47,644 nt of DNA from Actinomycetota bacterium (GCA_002716485.1 PBBE01000047.1:1-47644), one strand, 5' to 3'; positions 13,106-40,917 are shown, numbered from the stretch's first letter. Made by a program: numbers and translations. Notes: a model not told the origin generated them from the sequence alone.

Positions 13106-13212
13106 AGTAGTTCCTCCATTATTAGGGTGTTGATTTAACCCCTTTGTTTCATGTAGATGATTAGTTTTATTTTAATGGGCCTAGACTACTGTGTCTAGTG
13201 TTAAAATATGTT

Positions 13213-22699: not shown

Positions 22700-25600
22700 T
22701 TGTGGAGGAAAAGTTTTTAGAAGGAATCCATGAAAAATATGAGTTATTGTCTTATCAGGGACGCCGGGTTTTAGAGCGGCATTTTTTGTCGTCAGATGTG
22801 GCCCTTTTGCAACACTTTATGAAGGAATCGGGGGTGCTTAAAGCGTTGACGGAGCGTGTGGAAGGGGTGTTTTTGGAGCATTGCCCTACAGGTGGGTTTG
22901 ATAAAAAGATGATGTTTTATTTACCTGAAAAGGGACTTAGTTTGGGGCAATTGTTATCTAAAGGGCCGATGAGTATGTCGGACTTTTATGCGTTTATTTT
23001 ACCCTTATTATCCCGACTCAAAAAGGTATATGGGGCAGATTTTTTTCATGGGAACTTGAACCCGAATACCATTATTGTGGATTCAGAGAGCTTTGAAAGT
23101 TATTTCTTTTCAGTTTCATTTTATGCAGAATCTGAACAGGCGGTTCCGTTTTATATGGCCTTAGGGAAATCTATATTGGCTTATTGTGCGCCGGAACGGA
23201 CCCAGCGATTGACCTTGCCTTATGATCATCGCTCAGATTTTTATGCCTTGGGGTGCTTGATTTATGAGTGCTTAACGGGCACTTGTTTATTTGATTTTGA
23301 GAAGCCAGAAGAGATGGTTTTTGCCCATTTGACCCAATCGCCTCGGGAGTTGTTTGGATTGAAGGGGAAGGTGCCGGACTACTTTTCGCCAATGTTACTT
23401 AAAATTATTGAAAAGTTGTTGCATAAAGATCCTCATCAGCGGTATCAGGATATTGATAGTCTGATTTATGATATTTCTCAGACTCAGCGCTTGGCAAGTA
23501 CAGTAAGCTTTCCTTTGGATACCCAGGGGAAGTATCGGAATGTGGTTCTTTCTGATCAATATTATGGTCATCAAAAAGAAAAAGATCAGATGGTGAGTAT
23601 TTATAAGAATAGCTTAAAAAATTATCCGCAGTTGGTGTTAGTGGAAGGCGAGAAAGGGGCTGGAAAGACCCGGTTTGCACATTCTATATTACATGGGGCG
23701 TTTAAACCGTATCCATTTATTGTGTTGGTTTCATTGCAGCCAAAAAATCAAGAAGTGCCCTACTTTGGCTTAACTAAGTTGTTGGAGCAACTGGTATTTA
23801 AGTTGATTTCTCAGACCAACGAACAAGAAATAGAAGAGATTCGGCCGCAGTTACATTCGATTTCGGATGAGAATGTGGCTTTGTTGATGCAGTTGTGTAG
23901 TAGTTATTCGGCGTTATTGGAGTTTTTTGAGTTGGATACCAAAGTCACTCAGTCGACTCAAGTGGCTAATTTTGGCCATGCAGTGGTTCAGTTTTTATCC
24001 GTGGTGTCTTTAGTGAAGCCCTTGGTATTTATTTTTGATGGCTTAGAATTTGCAGATGAGGCCACGATTCGCTTTATTTCTCAAAGTTTAGTGGTTTTGA
24101 ATGATCGACCAGTAACGTTTGTTGGGACTATTGGGGATGAGGTGCTAGCGGAAGGGAATTTGGTATATTCAGTGTTGGTTCAGCCGTCTAAAACGATGTA
24201 TGACTATCATTTATTAAAGTTGTCGTTATTGACGGTAAGAGATATTAAGGCATTTATTAAAGATACATTTCACTATCGAGTGGAGCGATTGGATGAATTG
24301 GCGGCCATTATTATACAAAAGACTCATGGGAATCCGCACTATATCCGGCAAAGTGTATCCTTTTTATTAAAGGAAGGATACTTTAAGTATTTGACGGAAT
24401 CGTCGATTTGGAAGTGGAGTTCGGAGCAGGTGAAGTCCATTAAAGTGGCAGATTCAGCAGTTAATTTGCTTTTGGGTCAGTATCGGTCTTATTCAGATGA
24501 TATTCGCTTATTGGTTCAATATGCGGCATGCTTTAAAGATTCATTTACCATGCAGCAAATGGCGTCTTTATTGGGCTTTTCTAATGATGTTTTAATTCAA
24601 TATTTATTGACCTTAATTGACGATAATATTTTAGTCATGGTGAACCAATCGATTTATTTGCTTTCTTCTCGAACTTTAAGGGAGCAGTCGTACGTGCTAG
24701 AACAAGCTAGTTTTGATTTTTCGAATCCAAAGATTAGTGCCTTTATTTATGATCAAGTTGCGGCTCAGGAGCGATCTGAGGTGCATTTTCGGATTGGGAA
24801 GTTATTGTTGGGGCAGCAAGATCAATTGGATGAGATGTTTGCAGAATATAAGATTGTGAAGCATTTTAATTTATCTGACAGAGCGTATTTGGATAAATCT
24901 TTGGCGAGACAGTTGGTGAACTTGAATTTACTTGCGGGTCAAAAGTCGAAAGCAGCGGGGCATTATCAAAAGGCCTTGGTTTATTTTGATTTTGCCTTAA
25001 AGTTTTTAGATGCCTTGCATGATGAGTGGGATCAGCCGTTATGTTTTTCTATTTTATTGGAACGGGTGAGGTGTTTGTATTTTAGTGTGGGATATGAGGC
25101 GGCCTTAGATGCCATTTCCCAGGCATCTGAATATAGTATGTCGCGCTTGGATAAGGCCACCGTGTTGATGGAGCAATTATTTGTTGAAATTGAACAAAAT
25201 TACTTTAGGAAGGCGACGGAAACGGCTTATGAGATGTTGCGACATTGTGGGGTTTATTTACCCAAAATAAAGGCGGTTATTATTTTGTTTTTGATTTTGG
25301 AAGCGCAAAAGATTAAACGATTTATTCATTTGCCAATTGAGACGGATTTGGTTTTAGATCCCCAACAATCACGGCGATTAGAGTTGATGTTTCGGGGGTT
25401 TGAGCTATTAAATACAAGTGTGCATTTGGTGAATAATGAACTGTTTGCCTTATCGTCTCTTAAATTACTATCCGCGTCTTATCAGATGGGAGGCTCTGCT
25501 AATTCGGCCTCTGGTTTGACCATGTATTCATTTTGGTTAACTACCCAACATAAGTTAGATGAGGCATTTACTTTTTCTGAAAAGGCCATTGATATTAGTA

Positions 25601-27987
25601 ATCACTTTGGTGACCCGACGATGATTGGTCGGTCTTTGTTGGCTTATTATGGGTTGGTAGGGATTTGGAAGATTCCTTTAAGAGAGACAGCCCCTGGTTT
25701 GGAGAAGGCATTTCGTAATTTGATGTTTGCAGGGCAACCTAGTTACGCTGTTATATGCTTGATATTTTCATTTTTGAATCAATTTTTTGTGGGGGTCAAG
25801 GTGCCCTTGTTATCGCAGCATTTAGCGCGTATTTTTGGGTATTTGAAGGGGATGGGGGTTTCTCTTGAATCGACTTCAGAGGTTCCTGATGAGCCAATGT
25901 CGTCTAGTATGAGCTTGATTAAAGTAGATGGGACCTTAGTGGATGATTTAAATATGTATCACAAATTTGTTCAGGTTTTAGCGGGTGGTGGTGGCCATTT
26001 TGATGAAATAAATCAAATTGATTTTAAACAATTAGATGATCGTTTTGACGATGGGTCACCGGTAGGCGTCTTTATGATGGTTTTTTGCTTTTTTGATAGT
26101 CAATATGAAAAGGGGCTTGAGATTGGGGATCAGCTTTGGCGTATGATTAAAGATCGTCATTTGGCGGTTATTTATCCGTTGTATATCTATTATTATAGTT
26201 TATTGATTTATCAAGGCTTTCAGGGTGCAAGCCTAAGACGGAAATGGATTTATCGACGACGTTTGTCTTATATTGTGAAACTTTATGATGGGTTTCAAGA
26301 TCGCTGTCCCGAAAATTTTCGGACGATTTATTTGTTTTTGGATGCCAAGTTATCGCATTTGAGATCTCCTTCATTTAACACAGTTCGTTATTTTAATGAG
26401 GCCGTGAGTTTGGCCATTCAAGATCAGATGCCCCATGTGGCAGGCTTGTGTCATCAAGCATTAGCGGATATTTATGAAGAAGAAGGGGTGTACCATTTGG
26501 CGTATACTCATTTAAATGAGGCTGTTCATTATTATTCGAATTGGGGCTTGAGTTTGGGGGTTCAAGAGATGAAGCTTAAGGTTGAATCATTGTATGAAAA
26601 ATGTAATTTATCTAAAGGGTTTATGCTTAATTTTTCTCAAGGGCTGGATTTTAAACGTTTGATTAATGCGAGTCAGTCTTTATCTCAAGAGACGAATTGT
26701 AAGGCCTTATTAGAGCAATTATTGAAGGTGGCCATGGAAAGTGCGGGAGCACAAAAGGCGGTTATTATTCTAAAGAAAGGAACTGATTTTTTTGTGGAAG
26801 CATCCTTTGATCCGAAGGACAATCAGATGAAGGTGTTTCAATCGGTTCCGATTCAGTCGGCGGATATGTTACCGAAGTCTTTGATTCAGTATGTTATTTT
26901 TACTAAAACCAAATTGCTGATTCATAACGCGGAGGGGCATAAGTTATTTCGGACGGATCCGTATGTGATTCAGAATGAACCGAAGTCGGTCTTATGTTTG
27001 CCTATTTTTAAACAGGTGGCATTAACAGGAGTGTTGTATCTTGAAAATAACTTGGTTTTTGATGGGTTTTCTGAAGATTCCTTACAGGTGTTAGAGGTGA
27101 TTGTCTCTCAAGCCGCTATTTCTATTGAAAATGCAGTTTTACATGAGCAGAACCAAGATTTAATTCATAACTTAGAGGACCGGGTTTCGTCTCAAATTAA
27201 GCAAACGCAGATAGCTGAACAGGAAAAAAACCAGAGTTTGAAAATGGTGAAAAAAGTATCAGAGCATTCGGCTTATGCGACTTTGACTAGAGGAATAGCT
27301 CATGAGATTCGCAATCCGATGGGGCTTATTTTATCGGGAATGGAATTAATTTTGGATAATATTCATGATAAAGAGTTGGTTCAAACGTATGCTCAATCTG
27401 TGAAGCAGAGCATGTTGCAGTTGTCGAGTATTACAACGAATATGCTTAACTATGGGACCCCGGTTTCGGACAAACGAGTCAATATGTCGATTAATGAGTT
27501 GATCAAAGATGCGTTAATGATGGCACGAACAGAGTGTAAGAAACGACGAATTGTGGTGAAAACGATTTTTAGAGAGGTTCCTGATGTGTATGTGGATACG
27601 AATAGTATTAGTCAGGCGTTTTTAAATATACTATTAAATGCGATTGAGGCCATTGATATGAATGGTGAAATTCAAATAGAAACCTTTGAGAGTCAGTGGG
27701 TTAATGCGTCTGGTCAACAAGTGGAAGGGGTGAAAGTGTTGGTTCAAGATTCTGGAAAAGGGATTCCTCAAGATATCTTAGATGAGATCTATGACCCGTT
27801 TTTTACTACAAAACATCAAAATGTAGGATTAGGACTTTCTCTGGTATTAAAAACAATAAGAGAGCATGAGGGGTTAATTGATGTGATTTCAAATGATGCA
27901 GGCTTGACGTCGTTTATTTTGCATTTACCTAGACAAGGTATTATAGAAGGGCGACGTGAGGAGGCCCTTTCTCTTTCAGTTAAGTAG
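22696..27987 (+). CDS. Multidomain sensor: degenerate Ser/Thr kinase, AAA ATPase, TPR-like region, GAF and histidine kinase (HstK-like)
   Basis: YCAPERTQRL and RSDFYALG kinase subdomains; P-loop GEKGAGKT; KTHGNPHY; GAF region (PKSVLCLPI, GVLYLENN); H-box IAHEIRNPM; N-box NAIEA; DSGKGI; FFTTK; GLGL. Confidence 0.92.
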   Translation: MIVEEKFLEGIHEKYELLSYQGRRVLERHFLSSDVALLQHFMKESGVLKALTERVEGVFLEHCPTGGFDKKMMFYLPEKGLSLGQLLSKGPMSMSDFYAFILPLLSRLKKVYGADFFHGNLNPNTIIVDSESFESYFFSVSFYAESEQAVPFYMALGKSILAYCAPERTQRLTLPYDHRSDFYALGCLIYECLTGTCLFDFEKPEEMVFAHLTQSPRELFGLKGKVPDYFSPMLLKIIEKLLHKDPHQRYQDIDSLIYDISQTQRLASTVSFPLDTQGKYRNVVLSDQYYGHQKEKDQMVSIYKNSLKNYPQLVLVEGEKGAGKTRFAHSILHGAFKPYPFIVLVSLQPKNQEVPYFGLTKLLEQLVFKLISQTNEQEIEEIRPQLHSISDENVALLMQLCSSYSALLEFFELDTKVTQSTQVANFGHAVVQFLSVVSLVKPLVFIFDGLEFADEATIRFISQSLVVLNDRPVTFVGTIGDEVLAEGNLVYSVLVQPSKTMYDYHLLKLSLLTVRDIKAFIKDTFHYRVERLDELAAIIIQKTHGNPHYIRQSVSFLLKEGYFKYLTESSIWKWSSEQVKSIKVADSAVNLLLGQYRSYSDDIRLLVQYAACFKDSFTMQQMASLLGFSNDVLIQYLLTLIDDNILVMVNQSIYLLSSRTLREQSYVLEQASFDFSNPKISAFIYDQVAAQERSEVHFRIGKLLLGQQDQLDEMFAEYKIVKHFNLSDRAYLDKSLARQLVNLNLLAGQKSKAAGHYQKALVYFDFALKFLDALHDEWDQPLCFSILLERVRCLYFSVGYEAALDAISQASEYSMSRLDKATVLMEQLFVEIEQNYFRKATETAYEMLRHCGVYLPKIKAVIILFLILEAQKIKRFIHLPIETDLVLDPQQSRRLELMFRGFELLNTSVHLVNNELFALSSLKLLSASYQMGGSANSASGLTMYSFWLTTQHKLDEAFTFSEKAIDISNHFGDPTMIGRSLLAYYGLVGIWKIPLRETAPGLEKAFRNLMFAGQPSYAVICLIFSFLNQFFVGVKVPLLSQHLARIFGYLKGMGVSLESTSEVPDEPMSSSMSLIKVDGTLVDDLNMYHKFVQVLAGGGGHFDEINQIDFKQLDDRFDDGSPVGVFMMVFCFFDSQYEKGLEIGDQLWRMIKDRHLAVIYPLYIYYYSLLIYQGFQGASLRRKWIYRRRLSYIVKLYDGFQDRCPENFRTIYLFLDAKLSHLRSPSFNTVRYFNEAVSLAIQDQMPHVAGLCHQALADIYEEEGVYHLAYTHLNEAVHYYSNWGLSLGVQEMKLKVESLYEKCNLSKGFMLNFSQGLDFKRLINASQSLSQETNCKALLEQLLKVAMESAGAQKAVIILKKGTDFFVEASFDPKDNQMKVFQSVPIQSADMLPKSLIQYVIFTKTKLLIHNAEGHKLFRTDPYVIQNEPKSVLCLPIFKQVALTGVLYLENNLVFDGFSEDSLQVLEVIVSQAAISIENAVLHEQNQDLIHNLEDRVSSQIKQTQIAEQEKNQSLKMVKKVSEHSAYATLTRGIAHEIRNPMGLILSGMELILDNIHDKELVQTYAQSVKQSMLQLSSITTNMLNYGTPVSDKRVNMSINELIKDALMMARTECKKRRIVVKTIFREVPDVYVDTNSISQAFLNILLNAIEAIDMNGEIQIETFESQWVNASGQQVEGVKVLVQDSGKGIPQDILDEIYDPFFTTKHQNVGLGLSLVLKTIREHEGLIDVISNDAGLTSFILHLPRQGIIEGRREEALSLSVK

Positions 27988-30348: not shown

Positions 30349-31257
30349 TTGGGCAAGCTTTTTTCGTTAGGATTGCCGATTGACTGGGATCAATATTGTC
30401 TTAGGGTGTACGTTCGTTTGATGTTACTGGGATGCCTGATGGTCTTGGGTTTGCCATTGGAAGGCGTTGCTCAAGGGAAGCTTGATTTAATATTTTTGTC
30501 ACCAAAATCGGCTTGGTCTGAAACGACCCGAAGTAAGGTGTTGTTTAAGGGCCAAGCGACGAATATTATACGGCTTAAAATTGGGGACGATTGGGTTTCT
30601 TTGGATAAAGAGGGTAAGTTTTATAAGACGGTGACCTTGCCTGAAGAGCCAGGGCGATTCCAAGTGAAAGTGTTGGGAGTGGGCCGTTCAAAGCAGACCT
30701 TGTTAAAATTATTTGATATTGATCGGCTTTTATCATTAAAAGAACAGGAGTTTTTAATGTATGCCCAGGAACAAATTTTTAATCAAGTTGAATTAATGGG
30801 ATGGAAACCAGTGCCATTATTGCCATTATTTAGAGAGTATTTAACCACACAAGCGGTATCTTTTATTTTATCTTCGAATTTAAGAAGGGGCATTGAAGAG
30901 GAAGAGGTTCAGCTTCAGATTAGTAAAATGATGCAATATTTAAAGGTGTTTCGTTTGGGCACTTCGGCGATTTTTGCGATACCTTGGAGCAATAATTATA
31001 TACCGATTCAAGGGGTGGTTCCTTTTTTGGCACAAACTTTTTATGACTCACACTATGATGGTTTTACTGATTTTAGTGTGTTGATTTATAATCAGCCAAT
31101 GTCGGTACTTGAGGTTTTTTTTGCTAAAGTCAAAAAAAGGGGGGTGGTGCCTGTGTTATGGACCTTAGATGCGGGGCCTATCTCAAAACGTTTTGGGGGG
31201 CCTAGTGTGAAGAAATTAAAGCGATTTCAGCAGCAACGATTGGTGATTACTCAATAA
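30349..31257 (+). CDS. Hypothetical exported/membrane protein with an N-terminal Ig-like domain
   Basis: Hydrophobic N-terminus, then a beta-rich segment (LSPK..VLFKG..VSLDKEGKFYKTVTL); start uncertain; convergent on the motor operon with a 12-bp gap. Confidence 0.6.
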   Translation: MGKLFSLGLPIDWDQYCLRVYVRLMLLGCLMVLGLPLEGVAQGKLDLIFLSPKSAWSETTRSKVLFKGQATNIIRLKIGDDWVSLDKEGKFYKTVTLPEEPGRFQVKVLGVGRSKQTLLKLFDIDRLLSLKEQEFLMYAQEQIFNQVELMGWKPVPLLPLFREYLTTQAVSFILSSNLRRGIEEEEVQLQISKMMQYLKVFRLGTSAIFAIPWSNNYIPIQGVVPFLAQTFYDSHYDGFTDFSVLIYNQPMSVLEVFFAKVKKRGVVPVLWTLDAGPISKRFGGPSVKKLKRFQQQRLVITQ

Positions 31258-31269
31258 TAGTAATGGCTG

Positions 31270-32463
31270 TTACTTTGCTAATAGTTCTATTACTTCTTTG
31301 TTGTTTGGATCGATTTCAATGGCACGTTGCCAACTATCAAAGGCCAAGTCTTCCAGTCCTAATTCATAATAAATGGAGCCAAGCCGGATATATAGTAGTG
31401 GTTGGGTAGGGTCAATTTGGATGGCTTGATTTAACTTGTTAAGTGCCATTTGGTAGCGTTTTTGTGAATAGTATTTGAATGAGTCAGAATAAAGGGCCAT
31501 GACTTTGCCGCTTTGCTTAGGTGCGACTTCAAATGGGAGGTCATGTTTTTTTCTGGGCCTCATTTCTTCTATTTTACTGGCCAATTGGGTTTTAAATCCA
31601 TCTACATCTTTTAATAAAGTGAGCCGTAATTTTTCAAGTTCATCCAATTCACCTTGGTATTGGTGCCATAAGTCTTCGATTTTATTGCCTAGTTTTTGGT
31701 ATTTTTTTTCATAGGCTTCAATTTCAGCACGTTGGTTTGAATAGGCGGATTTCATGCTGTTTTTTAGGGTGAATCCTACCGTTAGGTATCGGGAGGGGGC
31801 GTTATTATATTCCTCGTTGGCATCGCCTGAATGAGAAAGCTCGGTGAGGGCGATATTAATTTCAGTTTCTTTAGACGCATGAAACCGGTATCCAAAGTTG
31901 AAATCTTTGGTGTCATGTTCGAATATAATGGCGCCATTAAAAATATTGATTTCAAAGGCATAATAGAGACCGTTGCTGGTACTGATGCTTTTGATGGAGC
32001 TGAATTCTCGTTTGCCAAACCCGATATGTAGCCTTGAAAAGGGCGGTCCGAAATAAGTGGTTAAATAGGGGGAATAAAAATTTTCTTTTCCGGGACTCAC
32101 ATCGATCTTATTAGAACGGCTTGAGAGTTGTTTTTGGTTGCTAATATTTGCAATTCCGCCGGAGGCACCCACTAATTTTTTCATAAAAAAGTTCCAATGG
32201 ATATTAGCTGCAAATTGTTGGGGGCTTAAAATGGTGATGCCCGCTTTTATTTTTTCAGTGAGGCAGTAATTGAGCATCAGGTCAAATTCATGGGAGTAAT
32301 CTCGACTTAGTGCAAAAATCGTGCTTAGTTCAATGTCTCCACTTTGATGGGCTTTAGTCCCTGGAACATTGATTAAACTGGATGGGTAATGAAAGGCAGT
32401 GCTATAAACGGGGGTGTTTAAAAGACTGATGATAAAAATAAAGGTTCCGAGAATAATTCTCAT
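31270..32463 (-). CDS. Putative outer-membrane beta-barrel (YjbH-like) + coiled coil + C-terminal TPR protein, paralog 2
   Basis: Signal peptide, SLINVPGT motif, amphipathic strands (EHDTKDFNFGYRF, YLTVGFTL), heptad-rich segment and TPR pair with RLGSIYYELG...WQRAIEIDPNN. Confidence 0.7.
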   Translation of the reverse strand: MRIILGTFIFIISLLNTPVYSTAFHYPSSLINVPGTKAHQSGDIELSTIFALSRDYSHEFDLMLNYCLTEKIKAGITILSPQQFAANIHWNFFMKKLVGASGGIANISNQKQLSSRSNKIDVSPGKENFYSPYLTTYFGPPFSRLHIGFGKREFSSIKSISTSNGLYYAFEINIFNGAIIFEHDTKDFNFGYRFHASKETEINIALTELSHSGDANEEYNNAPSRYLTVGFTLKNSMKSAYSNQRAEIEAYEKKYQKLGNKIEDLWHQYQGELDELEKLRLTLLKDVDGFKTQLASKIEEMRPRKKHDLPFEVAPKQSGKVMALYSDSFKYYSQKRYQMALNKLNQAIQIDPTQPLLYIRLGSIYYELGLEDLAFDSWQRAIEIDPNNKEVIELLAK

Positions 32464-32465
32464 GA

Positions 32466-33758
32466 TTAGTTGCTAATGGCTTTATTTGGGCTAATAGGGG
32501 CTTGTTGGGGGATTGTTTCTGTTTTGTTTTGTGGGGTATCTTTTTTTTCTTTGGTTTTTTTTTGGGTTTTTTTTGATTCTCTGATTAGTTCTTTTTTGAT
32601 TTGTTTGAGATAGTTTACGATGTCTTTGTTTTTGGGATCAATTCGTAGGGCCATTTTCCATGCTGCTTTTGCCTTCTTATAATCTTTAAGTTTGAAGTAA
32701 ATGGAGCCAAGTCGGGTAAAGCCAACTGCAGAATTGGGGACGATTTTGACCACATTTAAGTATTCTTTTAAGGCATTTTGGTAGTCTTCATCATAGTAAA
32801 ACTCAAGGCCTCGCTGCATATGGACAAAGGCCCGTTTACTTGGATAACTTTCTTTGGGAAGGCCATCTTTTTCAAATGCGTCGGATAGGGTTTCTTCTAG
32901 GTCTTTTAGAAAGCCGGTTTGTTTGATAAGTTGATGGGTTTTTTCCACATCTTCTAGATTGTTTAGTCGAGTGTCGATATTATCGTAAGTTGAATTGAAT
33001 TCTTGACGTCCTACTAATAGGTCAGTGAGGCTATCTAAGACATTGCTGGCATAACTGACGCCGAATGAAAATAATCGTATTTCATGGCTAGGGTCTAATA
33101 TTTTGGGTCTTGCCGCCGTCCATGTTAAATAAATACGGGCTTTTTTTAGGTTGTATTTAAGACCAAGATTCGGAGAAAACCCGTCATATTCGGCAATAAT
33201 GGTTCCAAAGAGCATGCTTTTTTCAAAACCGCCTACAACACGTGTGATATTGGGTCTAATTCGATCAGAGGCGATTCCAATATGATAATTAGAGTTAAAT
33301 TTTAGTGATGAAATGGAGTAGATTGCAAATAAGTTCATAATGGGAATATTAGGAGCAGAGTCAATTTGCGGGATACTTCCCCAGCCTAGGTTTTTGAGAC
33401 CAATTCCAATATTATGTTGGATGGTTTTTTTTCTGTTTTGTCTTACAAATGGGGCGAAGTGAAAGCTATGAAGGGTATTCATGGTGTCTTGGACATTAAG
33501 GTTATATTCAAAGCGATCGGATAGTGCCCAGCGTAAATAAAATAATGTTCTAAAATAGACGGTGGCAGAGTCCGGGGTTTTGGCTCGGTAATCAAACATG
33601 GCACCATATTCAGTAAACCCCATTTTTTCCATTTTGGCAGAGGGGACTGTGATGAGGTCGTTTGATCCGGAAAAGCCAAATAGAAGCCCGTTTGAAAAGC
33701 CCCAAAATAGACTTAATAAAATGATAAGTTGTGGCTTAATGCGCATGTTGATCATCAT
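32466..33758 (-). CDS. Putative outer-membrane beta-barrel (YjbH-like) + coiled coil + C-terminal TPR protein, paralog 1
   Basis: Signal peptide, DLITVPSA motif, strands (EYDGFSPNLGLKY, FSFGVSY), coiled coil (IDTRLNNLE) and TPR pair with RLGSIYFKLK...WKMALRIDPKN. Confidence 0.7.
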   Translation of the reverse strand: MMINMRIKPQLIILLSLFWGFSNGLLFGFSGSNDLITVPSAKMEKMGFTEYGAMFDYRAKTPDSATVYFRTLFYLRWALSDRFEYNLNVQDTMNTLHSFHFAPFVRQNRKKTIQHNIGIGLKNLGWGSIPQIDSAPNIPIMNLFAIYSISSLKFNSNYHIGIASDRIRPNITRVVGGFEKSMLFGTIIAEYDGFSPNLGLKYNLKKARIYLTWTAARPKILDPSHEIRLFSFGVSYASNVLDSLTDLLVGRQEFNSTYDNIDTRLNNLEDVEKTHQLIKQTGFLKDLEETLSDAFEKDGLPKESYPSKRAFVHMQRGLEFYYDEDYQNALKEYLNVVKIVPNSAVGFTRLGSIYFKLKDYKKAKAAWKMALRIDPKNKDIVNYLKQIKKELIRESKKTQKKTKEKKDTPQNKTETIPQQAPISPNKAISN

Positions 33759-34257
33759 TTAAGGGGTCAAACTTATGGCATATATGAATAAGGCCTAACT
33801 CTTTTTGGTTAAGGGTACATTGGATTTGAGCGACTTGTAGTTGTTGGTCAGGAAAAAAGCATTGGCATTGTTCTTTTTTGGTTTCGCAGCGAGTAAGCTC
33901 GACGGGCTTATTGAGCTTAAGATAGAGTTGTTTAGTATCTTGGGACAGTTGAGATGAGAACAGGGATTCACTTGATGTTAAAATGTGTTCGGGTCGTTTA
34001 GTTACAATGCCATCACCTCCTAACATTCGGTCTGCTAATGCATAGATAATAGGGAGGTCAAAATTAAATAGAATGGGTTGGTTGTTTTCTTCAAATAATA
34101 GGGTGAAATTAAAGTCAGGTAATTGCTCTAGGAGGACATTAAAGGGCTGGTGCTTAAATTCAATATGAGTCATTTGAATCGAAATTTTGAGCTGTGATGC
34201 GATATGATCAGATAAGTTGAGTGCAAGTTGTTTATAAAATGGCTCAAATTGTGTCAT
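33736..34257 (-). CDS. fliM: FliM-like protein, middle (CheC-like) domain only
   Basis: FDLPIIYALADRMLGGDG...LTSSE matches the FliM GGxG region. It is 173 aa, with no LSQxEIDxLL N-terminus and no SpoA tail. Confidence 0.7.
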   Translation of the reverse strand: MTQFEPFYKQLALNLSDHIASQLKISIQMTHIEFKHQPFNVLLEQLPDFNFTLLFEENNQPILFNFDLPIIYALADRMLGGDGIVTKRPEHILTSSESLFSSQLSQDTKQLYLKLNKPVELTRCETKKEQCQCFFPDQQLQVAQIQCTLNQKELGLIHICHKFDPLNDDQHAH

Positions 34258-34274: not shown

Positions 34275-34928
34275 TTATTGTACCGTTTCTTTAACGAGAA
34301 TGCTAATACGGCGGTTATTGGCTCTGTTTTGTTTGGAGGTATTCGGTGCAATTGGTTTGGTATCTGCATACCCAGTTACACGAAGACGGTGTGAGTTAAT
34401 TTTAGATTGAATTAGTCGTCTGGCTACGGCAGATGCTCTGGCAGCAGATAGTTCCCAATTAGATGGATAGATATCGGATTGGATGGGAATATTATCGGTA
34501 TGACCTTCAATAATAATTTGGCCGTTACTTTGTTGAAGAAGATGGCTGATTTTAATTAATATTTTGGAGGTGTTTGTTTTTATGCTGGCTTTACCCGAGT
34601 CAAATAATATTTCTGAACCTAGATTAATACGGATATTTTGGGGGGTTTGGATGATTTCAATATCATTTTCAAGTTGGTTTTCTATAATATAGGCATTTAG
34701 TGTATCGCTAATGTCTTGGAGTTGTTTTTGCTGATTTAAAAGGTCATTGAATGGGGAGTCGTTATTGTTGCTGAATGTATTGCTTAATGACGCTTGTGAT
34801 TCAATATATTTTCCGATATCGATTTCAGAAATAGAGTATAAATAAATGAAAAAGACGAGTAATAGAGTTAATAAGTCTGCCCAGCAGACAATAAAATGAT
34901 TTTTAGGTTGCTCGTTTAATTCATTCAT
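34275..34928 (-). CDS. motB: Stator B subunit (MotB/PomB-like, OmpA-type peptidoglycan-binding domain)
   Basis: WADLLTLLLVFF TM with the conserved Asp; EGHTDNIP, SNWELSAARA, GYADTKP and NRRISI motifs. Confidence 0.93.
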   Translation of the reverse strand: MNELNEQPKNHFIVCWADLLTLLLVFFIYLYSISEIDIGKYIESQASLSNTFSNNNDSPFNDLLNQQKQLQDISDTLNAYIIENQLENDIEIIQTPQNIRINLGSEILFDSGKASIKTNTSKILIKISHLLQQSNGQIIIEGHTDNIPIQSDIYPSNWELSAARASAVARRLIQSKINSHRLRVTGYADTKPIAPNTSKQNRANNRRISILVKETVQ

Positions 34929-35695
34929 TTGTTTGGTTTGAGCTTTTTACGCTCTTTTTCGGGTAGGCACATGGACATTTTTTCATAGATCATATAATTG
35001 GTCTCTTTTTGGGCAATGCAGATGATGCCTTCTAAGAGCATTTTCTTTTGGATTAGTTCTTCATTACTTGCAATTCGTAGACGACCTGATAGGGGTTGAA
35101 AAATGAGGTTCGCCAATAGGATGCCATAGAATGTTGTAATCAATGCGATGGCCATGTTAGGACCAATCGTCTCAGGGCTTTCTAGTTCTGACAGTAAGTT
35201 AATCAGTCCAATTAATGTGCCAATAAATCCGAATCCTGGAGCATATTGGGCCATTTGCTCAAAAAAATGGATACCTTGGTTATGTCGAGACTGGATAAAG
35301 TCAATATTTTTTTCTAAGATGGGAACTAATTCTTTGACGGGGATATTATCAATGAGTAGTTGAAGACCATGTTTTAAATAATGGTCTTGGGTTTTTTTGA
35401 CGGTTTTTTCGAGAGATAAGCGGCCATTTTTTTTGTAGTTAGTGGCGATTTCGCTCATGTGTTTGATGTCTTGTAAGTAGTCTCTGCCTCGTGGCGAGAA
35501 AATAACTTTTAACCGGCCACCAATTCGAAATAGCTGGGTTAATGGGAAATGGACGAGGGTGGCACCGAAAGTGCCGCCCATGACAATTAGAAATGAGGTT
35601 GGATGTACAAATAAATGGATTCCTTTTTCGATGCCAATGGCTTGAATAATGAGCCCGCAACCTAATAATACGCCTAAAAATGCGGTGATGTCCAT
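34925..35695 (-). CDS. motA: Stator A subunit (MotA/PomA-like)
   Basis: SFLIVMGGTFGA, GRLSLE, APGFGFIGTLIGLI and IGPNMAIALITTFYG motifs; AGGGAG RBS. Confidence 0.95.
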   Translation of the reverse strand: MDITAFLGVLLGCGLIIQAIGIEKGIHLFVHPTSFLIVMGGTFGATLVHFPLTQLFRIGGRLKVIFSPRGRDYLQDIKHMSEIATNYKKNGRLSLEKTVKKTQDHYLKHGLQLLIDNIPVKELVPILEKNIDFIQSRHNQGIHFFEQMAQYAPGFGFIGTLIGLINLLSELESPETIGPNMAIALITTFYGILLANLIFQPLSGRLRIASNEELIQKKMLLEGIICIAQKETNYMIYEKMSMCLPEKERKKLKPNK

Positions 35696-35699
35696 GTGC

Positions 35700-36698
35700 T
35701 TACTCCCTTTTTTCGATTAGTTCTGATAATGGGTTGACTTTGTTGTTTCGTTCGAGTTCACGTGCTGTTTGAATAATATTTTTTTGGGCGATTTTGGCAT
35801 CATTTTCATTGAGCTCTTTGGGCAAGTTACTGATTTCTTCTTCTAACATGAACTTAAGTCGTTCGGAGAGGTTTTCTAGAATTCTATTTTTCACGTTGAT
35901 ATTAGAAATACTAAGGGCTGCTGCTAAGGTGCTTAATGGATCAATAGCGTATAGTAGACTTTGAAGATCTTTATCAGATAGATTGATTAAGTCTCCAAAT
36001 TCAAGCATATAGGATTTGATTTTTTGACTGGCTTCTTGGTCGCTTTGTTCAAAGTGGGTCATAATTGCACTCATATGTTCAGGGTTCATCACTTCGAGAC
36101 TTAAGGATAATTTGAGGTATGGATCTGTGCTTTCTTTGCTCACTTTTTCTTTTAATAATTGGTCTTTGAGGTGATGATGGATCTTCCAAGCCAAGCTAAT
36201 ATTGGGGATGTCTATTTTGAGTAGTTTTGAGGTGATGAGAATACTGATGTCTTTTTCAAATTGGGATAATAGTTGGGCCATTTTGTCTTCCGGTAAAAAA
36301 GAGCAAATAAGGGCGCTTAGTTGCGGTGGTTCATTTAATAAAAATTGGGTGAGCTTTTCATTATCAACTTGGTTAAGAAAGTGGAATAATTGGTCACTTT
36401 TTTCAAATAATGACGCATGGGAAATATCTGGAAATGATTGTTCAAAGAGATGGCTGGGGAGTAGTTCACCACCAAAGTGGGATCGCTTTCCGTTTAATAG
36501 GGTATGAAATTCTTCGATAATTGGTGAGGAGATATCTTCTTTAATATGTCCTAACTTTGACATGCTTTGTAGGAGTTGGGTGCTTTGTGTTTTTCCCAGT
36601 TTATTGAGTACTTCATGGGTTACCCCTGGGGACTCGACCTCTAAAGATAAGAGCAAGATGGCTGCTTTTTGGATAGGGGTATAGGTATCATCATTCAT
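35700..36698 (-). CDS. fliG: Rotor protein FliG (divergent)
   Basis: QKAAILLLSL, the GG linker, EPPQ (EHPQ-like), MLEFGDL (MFxFEDL-like) and torque helix NLSERLKFMLEEE. Start set at 36698 after an AGGAG RBS. Confidence 0.9.
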   Translation of the reverse strand: MNDDTYTPIQKAAILLLSLEVESPGVTHEVLNKLGKTQSTQLLQSMSKLGHIKEDISSPIIEEFHTLLNGKRSHFGGELLPSHLFEQSFPDISHASLFEKSDQLFHFLNQVDNEKLTQFLLNEPPQLSALICSFLPEDKMAQLLSQFEKDISILITSKLLKIDIPNISLAWKIHHHLKDQLLKEKVSKESTDPYLKLSLSLEVMNPEHMSAIMTHFEQSDQEASQKIKSYMLEFGDLINLSDKDLQSLLYAIDPLSTLAAALSISNINVKNRILENLSERLKFMLEEEISNLPKELNENDAKIAQKNIIQTARELERNNKVNPLSELIEKRE

Positions 36699-37788
36699 TA
36701 TTGATGTCTCCTTCTTGTTCTTGGTCTTTAATCCAGCCCATAATGGTGTGGGCAACTGCTTCTGGTTTTTTTAATGAGATATTGGCCAGTTCTTTTCGTT
36801 TCTGTTTAAAAAGTCGTAGTTGTCGTTTTGCTTCTAGAGCTGCTTTTTTTTGAGCGTCTTCTTGTTTTTTTAAAATGGCTGCTTTTTTTTCTTTGATTTG
36901 ACGTCGAAGAAATAGTCCTAGTTTTGTTAGAAAGTAGAGAAGTAAGAGTAATATGCTAGTAATAAATAATTTGAAGTCTTGAGCGGCAATAAAAGATTTA
37001 GTGGTATCAAAAAAGGGTTTATGTCGGGCAAGAAAGCGTTGGATAATAAATAAGGGGCCTTGAAATGGGGTGTATTGGATGTCGAGTTGGTCTTGTCGTG
37101 TAGGGTTAAATCCTGAGATTGATTGGATAAGTGATTTTAAAGTGTCGGTGTCAATGGGGATTAGTTGTGTGGAAGCGCTATCAAGTAAAATTTGGATTTG
37201 CATTTGTTGGATTATGTTTTTGGGGCTGGAAATAGTTTCATTGGTTTCATTGTAGTAAATGGATTCAATCTTTTCGGAGATACTGGTATTTACCTTTTGT
37301 ATTTTTTCTTTGGGGATGCTTGGTTTAATACTTTCGACGACGACGCCAGGAAAGCCTGGTAGTGCGGATTCATTACTTTGACGTTGGGTAATGAGCCCAG
37401 GAAGTTTAAGTCCGTCTTTATAGAGCTGTTGTAACATTTGAGCAGATTGTCTAAGCGGGACCTGGGGAATGATATCACCATTTAGTTTTTGTTGGCGTTG
37501 GGTAATGATTCGATTTGGGGTTAGTTCTTTAGATTTTTGGATACGATGTTCGGGGATATCTAAGTTAACGGCGATGATAAAGGCAGTTTCAGGATAGAAT
37601 TTTTTGAGTAGTAGATGGATGTCTCCTTTAATTTTAAGGCTTTGTCGTTCTGGAAATGATAGGGATTGATGGGGGCGACGCTCAGATAGCCAGTTAGTGA
37701 TTTTATTGGGGGTTCTGAATAGAAAAAAGGTCCCCAAGAGGATGGCGATAATCAGGATGGGTAAATAAGGTGATTTATGTGTCGTCAT
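36691..37788 (-). CDS. fliF: FliF-like MS-ring protein, RBM3/C-terminal half only
   Basis: TM1, then RBM3-like segments (LLLKKFYPETAFIIAVNLDI; IIQQMQIQILLD; LIQSISGFNPTRQDQLDIQYTPF), TM2 and a FliG-binding tail KPEAVAHTIMGWI. Start set at MTTHK (37788). Confidence 0.75.
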   Translation of the reverse strand: MTTHKSPYLPILIIAILLGTFFLFRTPNKITNWLSERRPHQSLSFPERQSLKIKGDIHLLLKKFYPETAFIIAVNLDIPEHRIQKSKELTPNRIITQRQQKLNGDIIPQVPLRQSAQMLQQLYKDGLKLPGLITQRQSNESALPGFPGVVVESIKPSIPKEKIQKVNTSISEKIESIYYNETNETISSPKNIIQQMQIQILLDSASTQLIPIDTDTLKSLIQSISGFNPTRQDQLDIQYTPFQGPLFIIQRFLARHKPFFDTTKSFIAAQDFKLFITSILLLLLYFLTKLGLFLRRQIKEKKAAILKKQEDAQKKAALEAKRQLRLFKQKRKELANISLKKPEAVAHTIMGWIKDQEQEGDINNE

Positions 37789-39073
37789 TAGTTTTAAAAA
37801 TTTGGATTCGGTTATTACCAGAATCAACGACATATAAGGTGCGGGCACTACTATCATAGTGTAATTGACGAGGGAATTTAAACTCACCTGTATCGCTGCC
37901 TTCTTGGCCCCAGTTGGCAACGTGAAGGCCGGTTCTTATATCAAATATTTGGATACGATGATTAAACGTGTCTGAAACGTATAGATGGTGGTTGGCGCTA
38001 TCTATGGCCATGCCTTCTGGGCTTTTGATATTGCCTGTACTGGTACCATATTTAATTGTATTAAATTGGGTGAGCTCATTATTGCTTAATCGTTGTACAA
38101 TACTTAATTCTTTGTTGACGATGTAGACATCGTTATCATAATGGGCCAGATCATAGGCAAATAAGGTGGCGTTACTGTCTTGGAATGAGCTTGTGGGGCC
38201 AGTGTGGATCCGGTGGTCATCGAGGCTGCTATAGACCACCGATGTGAGATTGCTTGGGTTGGCTCTGACGGCAATGGGGTTATCTAGATTGTTGATCGGG
38301 ATAAAGGGATCTCCACTTTCTCCCCAATTATCAGGGTCAAATTTGATGATACGGTTATTACCAGAATCAGCGACCCAGATTCTGCTCCCGTCATAGGTGA
38401 GTCCTCGGGGATATCTAAATTGAAACTCGCCAGACCCTGCAGTGCCATAGGTGGCCATTAAGCTGCCAGAGGGGGCATATTTTTGGATTCGAGAGTTTAG
38501 GGTGTCTGATACATAAATATTTTTGTTGCTATCTAGGGTAATGCCCGTGGGATGGATGAGTGCGTCATTGGGGGTAATATTGAGTTGATGGGACATAAAT
38601 CCGGTATATTTGAGTGCTTTGGGTGAGGATGATGAAAATGTGTAATTTCTAGTTGAAATGGCTTGTAAAATAAAATTATAAGTAGTAAAGCCTTCACTTA
38701 ACTTTTGCTCAAGGATATATTGGTATATGATGGCATTGTTAATGGAAATATTTTCAGTGATAATTAGTAGGTCTTGGTTGTTTTTATTAGGTTCAACAGG
38801 GAATTGTTGGATGTATTGGTAGGGCTGGGTGCTTCCTTCGGTTTTGAAAGCCAATTTGTAATGGTCTACATTTTCGGGGTTATTGATAATCCATTTGATG
38901 GTAATAAATTGGGTGGCTTTATCGAGTTCGATTGATGAGATCATTGGAATGCTTTGAAAATCGTCAAATTTAACAGTGGCGGTTAAATTATCGATGGGGC
39001 TGGATGTGCAGCCGATAATCAGGCCTAAGCAAAGAAGGATTGTACTGACTTCGATATGCAGCCTTTTGATCAT
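37775..39073 (-). CDS. Lipoprotein with an FN3-like domain and an NHL-repeat beta-propeller
   Basis: Lipobox LIIG-C; NHL repeats (PTGITLDSNKNIYVSDTLNSRIQK, PRGL..WVADSGNNRI, PEGMAID..YVSDTFNHRIQ, YVVDSGNNRIQ). Confidence 0.88.
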   Translation of the reverse strand: MIKRLHIEVSTILLCLGLIIGCTSSPIDNLTATVKFDDFQSIPMISSIELDKATQFITIKWIINNPENVDHYKLAFKTEGSTQPYQYIQQFPVEPNKNNQDLLIITENISINNAIIYQYILEQKLSEGFTTYNFILQAISTRNYTFSSSSPKALKYTGFMSHQLNITPNDALIHPTGITLDSNKNIYVSDTLNSRIQKYAPSGSLMATYGTAGSGEFQFRYPRGLTYDGSRIWVADSGNNRIIKFDPDNWGESGDPFIPINNLDNPIAVRANPSNLTSVVYSSLDDHRIHTGPTSSFQDSNATLFAYDLAHYDNDVYIVNKELSIVQRLSNNELTQFNTIKYGTSTGNIKSPEGMAIDSANHHLYVSDTFNHRIQIFDIRTGLHVANWGQEGSDTGEFKFPRQLHYDSSARTLYVVDSGNNRIQIFKTNDDT

Positions 39074-40917
39074 CGACTTAGCCTTTCTAGTTCATTTTTT
39101 AAGGCAATATTCTCTGATTTAAGGGCATTAATTTCGCTTTGTTGGGCTTTAATAGATTCAATGATAAGACCGATTAATGGCGTCATGTTCAATGTTTTAT
39201 ATCCGCTGGGATCGGTGCCTACTAGGTTTGGGTAAATATCTTCGACATTTTGGGCGATTAAACCGATTTGGCTGCCCTCTGGAAAGGACCGTTCGGGAAA
39301 CTCGTCTTGACGCCATTCATAAGTGACCCCATTGAGTTCAGAAAGGGAAGCTATGGGAGTTGAAATGGCCTTGATCTCTTTTTTTAAGCGCCGATCAGAT
39401 GGTGTGCTGAGTGCCATTCCGGGGGTTCCTGCCATAAAGGTGGTGCCAGTGACATGTAAGTCGCCGGTGATCTTAATGCCGGCACCGTAGTCATTGATTT
39501 TTCCTAATTCTAAATTGGTTCTGGCTGCTTCTGCAGTGGTGCCGCCGGTACCTCCCTTGCTTATGGCAATGATGGGGAGACGGTTGGCAGGGACCTCTTG
39601 GGCGTAGGTGGTGGTGATATTGGTATTGCTTAAATTGGTCATGGTGGCTGTTCCTGTAATATCACCAGTAAGTGTAATAACGGGATCATTGACATCAAAG
39701 CTTAGTGTTTTATTGGGATGGCTGCCAGCGCCATCTATAGAAATGCCATTCTCTGTATTGTCATTGACCATTTTGATTACTTCGTCTCTTACTTCATTTC
39801 CATTTAATCCGCCACCAGCCCCGGCGGGAACGTTAGATAGCCAGTTGTAGTGGATTCGACCGGCGCCTGTTGGCTCATCATCAAGGTCAACTTTTTTATA
39901 AAACGTATTTTCAGTATAGCTTGTAATGGCTTTTTCAGTAGGAATTGCGCTATCACTATTTCCTGTAAAGGTGGCATCACTACTGAACTCGTTGACTGGA
40001 ACCCCTGAGTTAAGGAGAAGTGTGCCTTTGACTTCAAGGGTTTCACTGGGATTGGTGGTATTAATACCGACATTGCCTTTATTATAGAAAATTTCATTGG
40101 CTTCACTGCCGTCTTCCCAGCGCCCTGCATTTTCGTCCACATAGGTTTTGATGGCTTTTTCAGTGGGAATACTGTTGTCACTATTGCCAGCAAGGGAGGT
40201 ATCGGTACTAAAGTTGTTAATCGCGGTTCCAGAATTTAAAAGAAGGGACCCGTTCTTGATATGAAGTTTCTCGGTTGGGTTGGTGATGCCAACGCCTACA
40301 TTGCCAGAGAGATAATAAATTTCATCGCTGTCATCACGCTCTTTCCATTTTCCACCGTTTTCTTTGATGTATTCGACAATGGCCAATTGGGATGCAATTT
40401 TATTATCACTTGGATTGGTAAAGGTGATGTCGGTACTTAGTGCTTGGATTTCGTTACCATTGTTAATTGTAATGCTTTTAACCTTAATGGATTGCTCGTT
40501 ACCAAATAATGATGGGACTAGGTCAATTGCATAGGGGGCGGCTGTGAGTGAGTGGGTTAGGGGGATGGTTACTTGGTCAATGGTATAGGACTCCGCCCCT
40601 TCGATGCTAAATTGCAAGTTTGGGGTGGGGATATCAAGTAGGTTTGGGGTTAAAGGGGTGCTATGTCCCAAGGTAAGATCAGCATGGCCATCCACAAAAG
40701 AGACCCCAATTAATGTTTCACTCCAAGCGGTTGCGGTGGTATCTGAAAATAGTGCGATTTTCACTCGCTTGTAGCCGTTAATAGGGCCGTTTTGGTCAGA
40801 AAGGTTTAATGTGATGGGGATGACTTTGGATGCCGCTATGATAGGGCTGCTATTTTTAATTAATAGGCCGGAGATAAGGGCGCTCCAAATAAGTATTTGA
40901 AAGAAATAGCGTTTCAT
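39070..40917 (-). CDS. Secreted trimeric fibre/adhesin with a C-terminal peptidase S74 intramolecular chaperone
   Basis: Signal peptide; GNVGVGITNP and GNVGINTTNP repeats; tail-fibre motifs (ITLTGDITG, KGGTGGTTAEAARTNL); SDRRLKKEI...GVTYEW...IGLIAQNVE and a terminal coiled coil. Confidence 0.88.
   Translation of the reverse strand: MKRYFFQILIWSALISGLLIKNSSPIIAASKVIPITLNLSDQNGPINGYKRVKIALFSDTTATAWSETLIGVSFVDGHADLTLGHSTPLTPNLLDIPTPNLQFSIEGAESYTIDQVTIPLTHSLTAAPYAIDLVPSLFGNEQSIKVKSITINNGNEIQALSTDITFTNPSDNKIASQLAIVEYIKENGGKWKERDDSDEIYYLSGNVGVGITNPTEKLHIKNGSLLLNSGTAINNFSTDTSLAGNSDNSIPTEKAIKTYVDENAGRWEDGSEANEIFYNKGNVGINTTNPSETLEVKGTLLLNSGVPVNEFSSDATFTGNSDSAIPTEKAITSYTENTFYKKVDLDDEPTGAGRIHYNWLSNVPAGAGGGLNGNEVRDEVIKMVNDNTENGISIDGAGSHPNKTLSFDVNDPVITLTGDITGTATMTNLSNTNITTTYAQEVPANRLPIIAISKGGTGGTTAEAARTNLELGKINDYGAGIKITGDLHVTGTTFMAGTPGMALSTPSDRRLKKEIKAISTPIASLSELNGVTYEWRQDEFPERSFPEGSQIGLIAQNVEDIYPNLVGTDPSGYKTLNMTPLIGLIIESIKAQQSEINALKSENIALKNELERLSR
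39907..40443 (-). repeat. Internal protein repeat of about 76 aa (about 2.3 copies) in the fibre gene
   Basis: LSTDITFTNPSDNKIASQLAIVEYI / FSTDTSLAGNSDNSIPTEKAIKTYV / FSSDATFTGNSDSAIPTEKAITSYT; the first two are followed by W..EI.Y..GNVG....P...L...LLLNSG. Confidence 0.8.

Follow-up and report, generated by a model that had tools for sequence, protein, structure and literature searches.

Rotor genes with two dedicated proteins predicted to be barrels

FliF, FliG and FliM are, to our knowledge, known almost exclusively as parts of the flagellum. In a stretch of 47,644 nucleotides recorded as Actinomycetota bacterium (GCA_002716485.1 PBBE01000047.1:1-47644; this whole stretch is referred to here as the window), relatives of these proteins are encoded on the minus strand in an operon that closes with two adjacent genes, B and A, whose products are each predicted to consist of a signal peptide, an N-terminal outer-membrane barrel, a linker and a pair of tetratricopeptide repeats (TPRs). 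The statement best supported by our analysis is that A and B make up the outer-membrane module of this motor cassette. In full-text literature searches, neither the cassette nor the protein family turned up as described before.

Several described systems share parts of this design. YjbH and GfcD are, in the available text of two reports, two-barrel proteins with a FapF-like N-terminal barrel (bioRxiv 10.1101/2021.02.17.431615; PMC9603273), and the first of these assigns them to a '12-12' two-barrel family (bioRxiv 10.1101/2021.02.17.431615). They share with the N-terminal domains of A and B a (G)LI.xP.A start and an E.DG...N.G motif. Whereas YjbH and GfcD reach about 700 aa by way of a middle domain that binds peptidoglycan and a further barrel, A and B (397 and 430 aa) instead end in the linker and TPRs, and whereas the former lie in polysaccharide export operons, A and B lie in a motor operon; Pfam found no Wza/Wzc-type family among the open reading frames (ORFs) of the window. 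FapF is described, in the accessible part of PMC5557850, as forming trimers of gated secretion barrels in which a helical plug is joined to a periplasm-spanning coiled coil. A and B would resemble it in having a barrel of the same kind and a long periplasmic coiled coil, but the coiled coil of FapF is N-terminal to the barrel, whereas that of A and B is C-terminal and is followed by the TPRs; a search of Protein Data Bank (PDB) sequences with the N-domain profiles gave no match to FapF, and there is no fap operon at this locus. OmpA-type proteins have the same topology, a barrel and then a periplasmic module, and two relatives of the A/B barrel (P0113 and P0123) carry OmpA domains, but the OmpA barrel belongs to another family, and where OmpA has a module for peptidoglycan, A and B have TPRs, which bind proteins. 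CpoB (YbgF) of the Tol-Pal system is a periplasmic protein with a coiled coil and TPRs, encoded by the last gene of an operon that opens with the MotAB-type TolQR; it has no barrel, however, and the Tol-Pal motor is TolQRA, as opposed to the FliG/FliF type found here. The CpoB family gave no match in the NCBIfam or Pfam lists.

Flagellar motors, for their part, have periplasmic accessories that hold stators, among which the part of PMC7693769 available names MotX/MotY, FlgO/P/T, PflA/B, FlcA and the TPR protein BB0236. These scaffolds (the MotX/MotY T-ring, the FlgO/FlgP/FlgT H-ring, PflA/PflB and the spirochaete collar of FlcA/BB0236) are encoded together with the motor or act on it, and they lie between the membranes, some of them with TPRs and some associated with the outer membrane. 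The known scaffolds encircle a rod-containing flagellum, whereas the cassette of A and B has no rod, ring or export genes nearby. Searches of A and B against motor scaffold families returned only FlcA_CTERM, a generic TPR match within the TPR region of A that scores 21.9 bits where 300 are required, and neither Pfam nor NCBIfam lists a flagellar rod, hook or L/P-ring family for either protein.

Related loci were obtained by scanning genomes with a single B-type peptide pattern, derived from a 17-row B-type alignment; 11 stretches matched, five of which encode relatives (L001 to L005), and our context data comprise the window and these five loci with flanks of 10 kb or less. The operon of the window runs tail-fibre-like/S74, NHL lipoprotein, FliF-like, FliG, MotA, MotB, FliM-like, B, A. 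The order FliG, FliM-like, B, A is kept in all five loci as well as in the window, adjacent cassette genes overlap or are spaced by 8 nt or less, and a FliF-like gene stands upstream of FliG in 4/4 loci that have upstream sequence (L002 starts inside FliG). MotA and MotB separate FliG from the FliM-like gene in the window and in L001 but in none of the other loci. Local hidden Markov model (HMM) searches found exactly two barrel-TPR genes per source (12 matches in six sources), and by their place in the tree the upstream copy is B-type in 6/6 and the downstream copy A-type in 6/6. Every close homolog with visible context adjoins motor genes (6/6 sources), in agreement with an earlier note, made from the window alone, that had tentatively assigned the pair to a motor. 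B of the window is only 27-43% identical to its orthologs, and adjacency within the cassette has therefore outlasted deep divergence. The loci also have flanks in common: TGT borders one end of the cassette, and RsbV/RsbW/HemN-like genes border the opposite end. TGT is faced by the A end of the cassette in the window and by the FliF end in L003 to L005; the internal order is thus kept while the orientation to TGT is reversed, which argues that the cassette moves as a unit.

Two of the records are named Candidatus Marinamargulisbacteria and the others are syntenic with them. The L005 record is labelled Actinomycetota; its order of TGT, FliF-like, FliG, FliM-like, B, A, HemN and RsbW/V is that of L004 and L003, identity between the cassette proteins of L005 and L004 is 71-76%, and its label is probably wrong. 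We describe the carriers of the cassette as marine Margulisbacteria-like genomes. In the comparison of L004 with L005, A and B show a ratio of nonsynonymous to synonymous substitution rates (dN/dS) of about 0.14-0.16, and FliF, FliG and FliM show one of about 0.10 to 0.20, with dS near saturation; as judged from these ratios, A, B and the motor genes are under purifying selection and maintained. We considered whether the cassette might be a decaying flagellar remnant and dismissed this, given dN/dS of about 0.10-0.20 across the five cassette genes and key motor residues that are intact.

The proteins of the motor itself retain much of what would be needed for torque. FliG is divergent, its score of 104 bits falling short of the equivalog cut-off (226.7), and in its torque helix the basic residue is R in five of the six loci and K in the remaining one, with the acidic pair present in 6/6; the equivalents in E. 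coli FliG are R281 and D288/D289, according to the available portion of PMC12505986. The FliM-like protein scores 26.0 bits against PF02154 (cut-off 27), its profile matches the middle domain of H. pylori FliM collinearly at E=0.02, and the GG.G motif is invariant in its alignment; Pfam found no FliN domain in the FliM-like protein and no FliN gene in the window or the related loci. The FliF-like protein aligns with residues 311-558 of Salmonella FliF (E=5e-7). It matches PF08345 only, the N-terminal YscJ_FliF domain (PF01514) being found in 0/5 copies even at E<=1. FliF is built of ring-building motifs (RBM1, RBM2 and RBM3a/b), followed by a beta-collar and, at the C-terminus, a domain that binds FliG, with the export gate inside the MS (membrane and supramembrane) ring, as set out in the accessible text of PMC7693769. 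In our reading, the part absent from the FliF-like protein would be RBM1/RBM2. With MotA, the plug and OmpA-like domain of MotB, the FliG torque residues and the FliM GG.G motif all kept, the motor looks functional from its sequence. No other flagellar family was found among the 34 window ORFs of at least 100 aa or the 63 ORFs of the related loci, and no rod, hook, ring or export genes lie within about 10 kb of the cassette in the window and locus flanks; the missing rod of which the earlier note had spoken is thus missing from these regions, as distinct from whole genomes. A Zorya-type defence system was also considered and dismissed: in PADLOC, ZorB models match MotB only, and no model matches MotA, B or any further protein of the operon, or A, save for one weak match of its TPRs to an unrelated model.

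Architecture and family of the pair

The earlier note had described A and B as a paralogous pair with signal peptides, a common LI(T/N)VP motif, amphipathic beta-strands, a coiled coil and TPRs, placed directly behind the fliM-like gene, and it had singled out the N-terminal position of the barrel. The paralogy is borne out over the whole length. By BLASTP, A and B match at E=1e-8 with 24% identity, confined to the C-terminal 60%, and alignment of the A-type and B-type family profiles by hhalign (probability 100%, E=8.5e-51, 365 columns) extends from the signal peptide through the end of the TPRs; A and B are, on this profile alignment, full-length paralogs. Both begin with a hydrophobic h-region, and a strict h-region test is passed by 56/65 aligned family members, with a lipobox-like string in 2/65. 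The N-terminal motif, LITVP in B and LINVP in A, is likewise matched in 56/65 rows, and its proline is almost invariant in the 65-row alignment. The placement behind the fliM-like gene, an overlap and then a 2-bp gap, is also as had been stated: the first ATG of B lies 23 nt inside the end of the FliM-like ORF (the overlap is 11 nt if counted from the third ATG of B, where the database copy P0001 starts), and exactly 2 nt separate the TAA of B from the ATG of A. A scan for promoters and terminators gave signals no better than those of shuffled sequence, and the sole match in an Rfam scan was a tRNA.

We find 12 candidate strands in the N-terminal domain of each paralog, at residues 46-238 of B and 41-237 of A, from family-averaged hydrophobic alternation, in keeping with the amphipathic strands that had been noticed before. 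The nature of the domain is suggested by distant homology. Four of 33 weak matches of the N-domain profile reach the gathering cut-off (24 bits) of PF06082 (YjbH), namely P0100 and P0127 (71.9 bits each), P0109 (33.9) and P0111 (29.0), over positions 1-194 of the 658 in that profile. Aligned by hhalign with these four and a fifth weak match (P0098, 23.4 against 24 bits), the family N-domains give a probability of 99.7% and E=2.2e-25 over 197 columns, a value to be read with the caveat that the YjbH-side sequences were retrieved with the query's own N-domain profile. On these profile comparisons, the A/B N-domain is a distant relative of the YjbH/GfcD N-terminal barrel. Consistent with this, YjbH is found in 25/30 of the nearest ESM Atlas clusters by sequence features for B and in 23/30 for A (cosine 0.93-0.94), and in structure the Atlas models of A and B come closest, at template modelling (TM) scores of 0.73-0.84, to proteins among which are ones with a YjbH domain, members of the DUF5777 beta-barrel family, and ones with the same fold followed by OmpA, HEAT or TPR. 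Homology and the Atlas models together make it probable that the N-domains of A and B are outer-membrane barrels of the YjbH-N/FapF kind. With an even number of strands both ends of the barrel, and therefore the linker and TPRs, would lie on the periplasmic side.

Support from YjbH-N homology thus exists for an N-terminal barrel, but the arrangement is not an unusual one, as the same kind of barrel stands upstream of OmpA, LysM, CarboxypepD_reg/PEGA or longer TPR modules in other proteins (P0091, P0102, P0113, P0123 and others). We also note that the Atlas lists fusions of a YjbH-N-like barrel to HEAT repeats or TPRs in clusters from Fibrobacterota, WOR-3 and Fidelibacterota. The occurrence of these proteins points to a broad, unstudied class of outer-membrane proteins with the barrel first and a periplasmic adaptor second.

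An exhaustive HMMER search with the N-domain profile returned 116 cluster representatives (clustered at 50% identity) at E<=1e-3, with 58 at <=1e-10 and eight at <=1e-30. The representatives of at least 330 aa number 77/116, and a simple pattern detects the C-terminal LGSIY-type TPR signature in 57 of those 77. A FastTree tree of 65 rows divides into two clades of 28 and 37 rows (support 99), and a quick IQ-TREE run on 75 rows gives the same A/B division (98 by the SH-aLRT branch test), with P0053, P0072, P0093 and P0099 switching clade between the two trees. HMM scoring of the 116 representatives classed 60 as A-like, 41 as B-like, 10 as YjbH-like and five as ambiguous. In the alignment, the motif HMQ[RK]G[LM]E.YY before the TPRs is specific to the B-type, and the tail beyond the TPRs is longer in the B-type (median 27 aa) than in the A-type (13 aa), tails of at least 30 aa being present in 15/33 and 3/31, respectively. 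To judge from the trees, the A/B duplication is ancient. Other searches added little: a word-based homolog search found one true relative for B and only TPR proteins for A, a search with the full-length family profile was dominated by TPR proteins and yielded no family names, and plasmids contained nothing that matched the B N-domain by tblastn.

The linkers of A and B in the window are about 68-83 residues long and carry a heptad signal (z=2.9 for B and 3.5 for A, on a crude score with 30 shuffles). With a helical rise of 1.5 Å per residue, linkers of A and B that were helical would span about 10-13 nm. Their length is near constant in the six sources despite change of sequence, at 66-70 aa in B and 79-89 aa in A. 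The coiled coil of the earlier note therefore fits the window pair, but it is not a family-wide property (33/63). The TPR pair, by contrast with the N-domain, is recognised directly. Pfam matches in A and B are limited to the C-terminal TPRs and lie above curated cut-offs (for B, TPR_1 at 45.9 bits and TPR_2 at 43.5 bits; for A, see Table 1), and the string RLGSIY..W..A..IDP.N, which had been pointed out before, is visible in the alignment as common to both. Coordinates of the pair and of the motor genes are collected in Table 1.

Table 1. Features of the A/B pair and the motor genes in the window (positions counted from its first letter; domain limits of A and B approximate where so marked).
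Feature	Position	Strand	Basis
Paralog B (430 aa), upstream copy, B-type clade	32466..33758	-	ORF and tree
B signal peptide, ~residues 1-29, cleavage point approximate	33672..33758	-	Hydrophobic h-region
B N-terminal domain, ~residues 30-240, LITVP and 12 amphipathic strands, inferred YjbH-N/FapF-type barrel	33039..33671	-	Homology, literature
B linker, ~residues 241-307, heptad periodicity, putative coiled coil or long helix	32838..33038	-	Heptad z=2.9
B TPR head, ~residues 308-385, HMQRGLE.YY and RLGSIY..W..A..IDP.N	32604..32837	-	Pfam TPR_1/TPR_2/TPR_11, alignment
B C-terminal tail, residues 386-430, Lys/Thr/Pro-rich	32466..32603	-	Sequence
Paralog A (397 aa), downstream copy, A-type clade	31270..32463	-	ORF and tree
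A signal peptide, ~residues 1-21	32401..32463	-	Sequence
A N-terminal domain, ~residues 22-238, LINVP and 12 amphipathic strands, inferred YjbH-N/FapF-type barrel	31750..32400	-	Homology
A linker, ~residues 239-320, heptad periodicity	31504..31749	-	Heptad z=3.5
A TPR head, ~residues 321-397	31270..31503	-	Pfam TPR_11 48.5 bits, TPR_1 42.9 bits
FliM-like (173 aa), middle domain only, GG.G kept, without FliN-type C-terminal domain	33736..34257	-	PF02154, profile match
MotB, plug and OmpA-like peptidoglycan-binding domain	34275..34928	-	Pfam, NCBIfam
MotA stator subunit	34925..35695	-	E ~1e-40 to solved MotA/PomA chains
FliG, N, M and C domains, likely true start internal ATG near 36698	35700..36755	-	Pfam, PDB match
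Truncated FliF-like: transmembrane helix, ~250 periplasmic residues, transmembrane helix, FliG-binding tail; likely start near 37788	36691..37920	-	PF08345

A possible role for A and B in the motor

We propose that A and B may form an outer-membrane-anchored hetero-complex that docks on an apparently axle-less motor and acts as a static scaffold or tether, a proposal whose chances of being right or wrong we take to be about equal. A and B would be exported by Sec, the N-terminal 12-strand barrel would insert into the outer membrane, and a linker of fixed length would extend into the periplasm and end in the two-repeat TPR head. A and B would pair through their linkers and heads, and on its periplasmic face the motor would be contacted by the TPR heads, at the FliF ring or at the peptidoglycan-binding domain of MotB, by which the inner-membrane motor would become tied to the outer membrane. 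Where MotA and MotB are absent from the cassette they are presumably encoded elsewhere in the genome. The outer-membrane location, the hetero-oligomer, the docking partner and a static as opposed to a moving role are thus what we infer. The static role is preferred because integral barrels are unlikely to rotate and because periplasmic scaffolds recur in flagellar motors, and the sole ground for pairing A with B is that the duplication is ancient and the two genes are always adjacent. A bolder possibility is that the cassette as a whole is an undescribed envelope-spanning rotary machine, a rotor and stator without export gate, rod, hook or filament that is coupled by A/B to the outer membrane and powers a function other than a propeller, such as the gating of FapF-like pores or the movement of surface fibres, of which the tail-fibre-like protein of the operon would be an example; we regard this as improbable.

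A number of observations weigh against the scaffold or tether that we propose. MotA and MotB lie outside the cassette in 4/5 loci, and gene order therefore does not favour a role as stator scaffold. All six contexts come from one lineage and were reached with one peptide pattern, and common descent may inflate the apparent linkage. The barrel is matched by no Pfam model in the N-domain of A or B even at E<=10, PDB sequences gave only chance matches to the N-domain profiles (E 0.8 or higher), and the Atlas models of A and B are only modestly confident, with predicted local distance difference test (pLDDT) values of 0.61 and 0.69. Linkers with a heptad z of at least 2 number 33/63 in the family, so that a coiled coil is not universal, and 8/63 members have proline-rich linkers (at least 10% Pro), that of P0002 being mostly Pro, Thr, Ser and Ala. 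The best PDB matches of the TPR head are consensus or generic TPR proteins and give no pointer to a partner.

Other explanations draw on the same evidence. A and B could be a motor-gated outer-membrane channel, in which FapF-like pores are opened through the linker and TPRs by rotation or by movement driven by the proton-motive force, with a logic like that by which TonB-ExbBD works on a plugged barrel, and whose cargo could be the tail-fibre-like protein or a protein tagged with a C-terminal domain (CTD). A barrel of the YjbH-N/FapF kind would suit such a channel, as FapF is a gated secretion barrel with its plug linked to a coiled coil (PMC5557850, in the portion available); the strongly conserved LI.xP.A segment before strand 1 could serve as a plug, and in the window the operon region adds genes for a secreted fibre, for a CTD protein and for a barrel like PorV/Q. 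Yet the fibre, CTD and PorV-like genes are not in L003-L005, nor in L002 as far as it is covered, which leaves no conserved cargo, and the search of PDB sequences gave no match to FapF itself; we consider a channel with such a putative plug and pore unlikely. The earlier note had raised a possible shaft, with stalks that reach from the outer membrane toward the FliF ring and stand in for the rod. In such a shaft the A/B stalks would bind the rotating FliF ring and carry rotation to the outer membrane or cell surface, and they could move surface fibres as in gliding. It is true that A and B are more tightly linked to the rotor genes FliF/FliG/FliM than to MotAB, which lie inside the cassette in one of five loci and the window, that linker length is fixed, and that the FliF-like protein keeps the C-terminal ring-building part without the N-terminal YscJ_FliF domain, so that an export gate and a rod base could not be housed in it as they usually are (domains as given in the available part of PMC7693769). 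An integral outer-membrane barrel is not expected, however, to rotate with an inner-membrane rotor, nothing in A or B resembles rod proteins and Pfam shows no rod or hook similarity, and the flexible, proline-rich linkers of 8/63 members could not transmit torque; a rotating shaft is, in our estimation, very unlikely.

It is also conceivable that A and B are ordinary envelope tethers of the OmpA or Pal/CpoB kind that merely adjoin motor genes by descent in one lineage. The same barrel is indeed fused to OmpA, LysM, CarboxypepD_reg and TPR in proteins without a known motor context, the contexts are from one lineage and the TPR head is generic; but against it stand the gene order, overlaps and two-copy rule seen in 6/6 sources despite B identity down to 27% and rearranged flanks, as well as rates of evolution like those of motor genes, and we give this explanation little credence. 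If instead axial and export genes lie elsewhere in the genome, A and B could be a lineage-specific scaffold, like an H-ring or collar, forming an accessory ring of a conventional flagellum. Our view is limited to the 47.6-kb window and 10 kb or less of flanks at five loci, and lineage-specific periplasmic scaffolds are common, as far as the accessible text of PMC7693769 goes. Against such a flagellum stand the FliF-like protein, which lacks YscJ_FliF in 5/5 whereas the export gate normally sits inside the MS ring (PMC7693769, same portion), the lack of a FliN domain or gene in the window and loci, the low FliG score relative to its equivalog cut-off, and the lack of any further flagellar family among the window and locus ORFs; in addition, the strings flagell, FliG and MotA are absent from the main text of two Margulisbacteria genome papers (PMC6349859, PMC6784892). 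We hold an accessory ring of this kind to be highly doubtful. A and B as a static outer-membrane scaffold or tether of an apparently axle-less motor remains the reading we prefer.

Neighbouring genes and significance of the cassette

Upstream of the FliF-like gene, the operon of the window contains a gene for an NHL-repeat beta-propeller lipoprotein (37775..39073, minus strand; Pfam) with a lipobox-like LIIGC in its sequence, which also precedes FliF in L001 and is not present in L003-L005. It overlaps by 4 nt with a gene (39070..40917, minus strand) for a secreted tail-fibre-like protein. This protein ends in an S74 intramolecular chaperone domain and resembles tail-fibre families of PHROGs, with E values as low as 4e-24; its gene belongs to the operon in the window but in none of the related loci. 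Directly before the motor operon, positions 41011-42545 encode a type IX CTD protein, whose TIGR04183 score of 37.1 bits exceeds the cut-off (23), and a protein that resembles PorV/PorQ weakly, at 33.6 of the 90 bits required, and has no PDB sequence match. Type IX secretion is usually described in phyla other than Margulisbacteria. Convergent with A, an ORF of 302 aa (30349-31257, plus strand) belongs to no family in Pfam, NCBIfam, PADLOC or PHROGs and has a homolog at the same position in L001 (7595-8434, minus strand; BLASTP E=3e-12); it may be a further conserved neighbour in the sub-lineage of the window and L001. In L003, which is from a Marinamargulisbacteria single-cell genome, leucine-rich-repeat (13014-14096) and F-box-like (14797-15462) proteins, with domains of eukaryotic type, are encoded right after the cassette and are suggestive of host association.

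We also note some features of the window at large. Very large genes lie at 610-7348 and 18326-27987. A 1677-aa protein without a family or PDB match adjoins an Omp85/BamA-like gene, the two possibly being a TamA/TamB-like pair; a 1457-aa protein has no family; and a 1763-aa protein, encoded after a double-receiver response regulator, has Ser/Thr kinase, AAA, GAF and histidine kinase domains. The strand asymmetry of the window (1-47644) is extreme, with a GC skew of +0.275 (0.14-0.44 per 2 kb) and an AT skew of -0.137. GC skew at the third codon position ranges from -0.44 to -0.69 in 13 minus-strand genes and from +0.48 to +0.72 in five plus-strand genes, and the bias thus tracks the DNA strand and not the direction of transcription. 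GC skew is +0.15 to +0.22 in L002-L005 and only +0.03 in L001.

The organisms concerned are uncultured Margulisbacteria, marine and host-associated, a sister group of Cyanobacteria with a cell biology of which hardly anything is known. The cassette described here keeps the torque-generating parts of the flagellar motor, has neither the export gate nor any axial part at its locus, and is always accompanied by two dedicated proteins predicted to reside in the outer membrane. Should whole genomes confirm that axial genes are absent, the rotor-stator core would prove to be reusable for another envelope function, and the cassette would be a small and simple system for how inner-membrane rotation couples to the outer membrane. 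An axle-less machine, were it to exist, would add a third route by which proton-motive energy reaches the cell surface to the two taken by the flagellum and by the Gld/Por type IX motor. For the protein family, the analysis defines an uncharacterised group of 116 representatives that fall into two ancient clades. We rate the pair as outer-membrane barrels with a periplasmic adaptor that serve a flagellar-type motor, and the widespread short 'YjbH-domain' barrels would thereby gain their first functional context.

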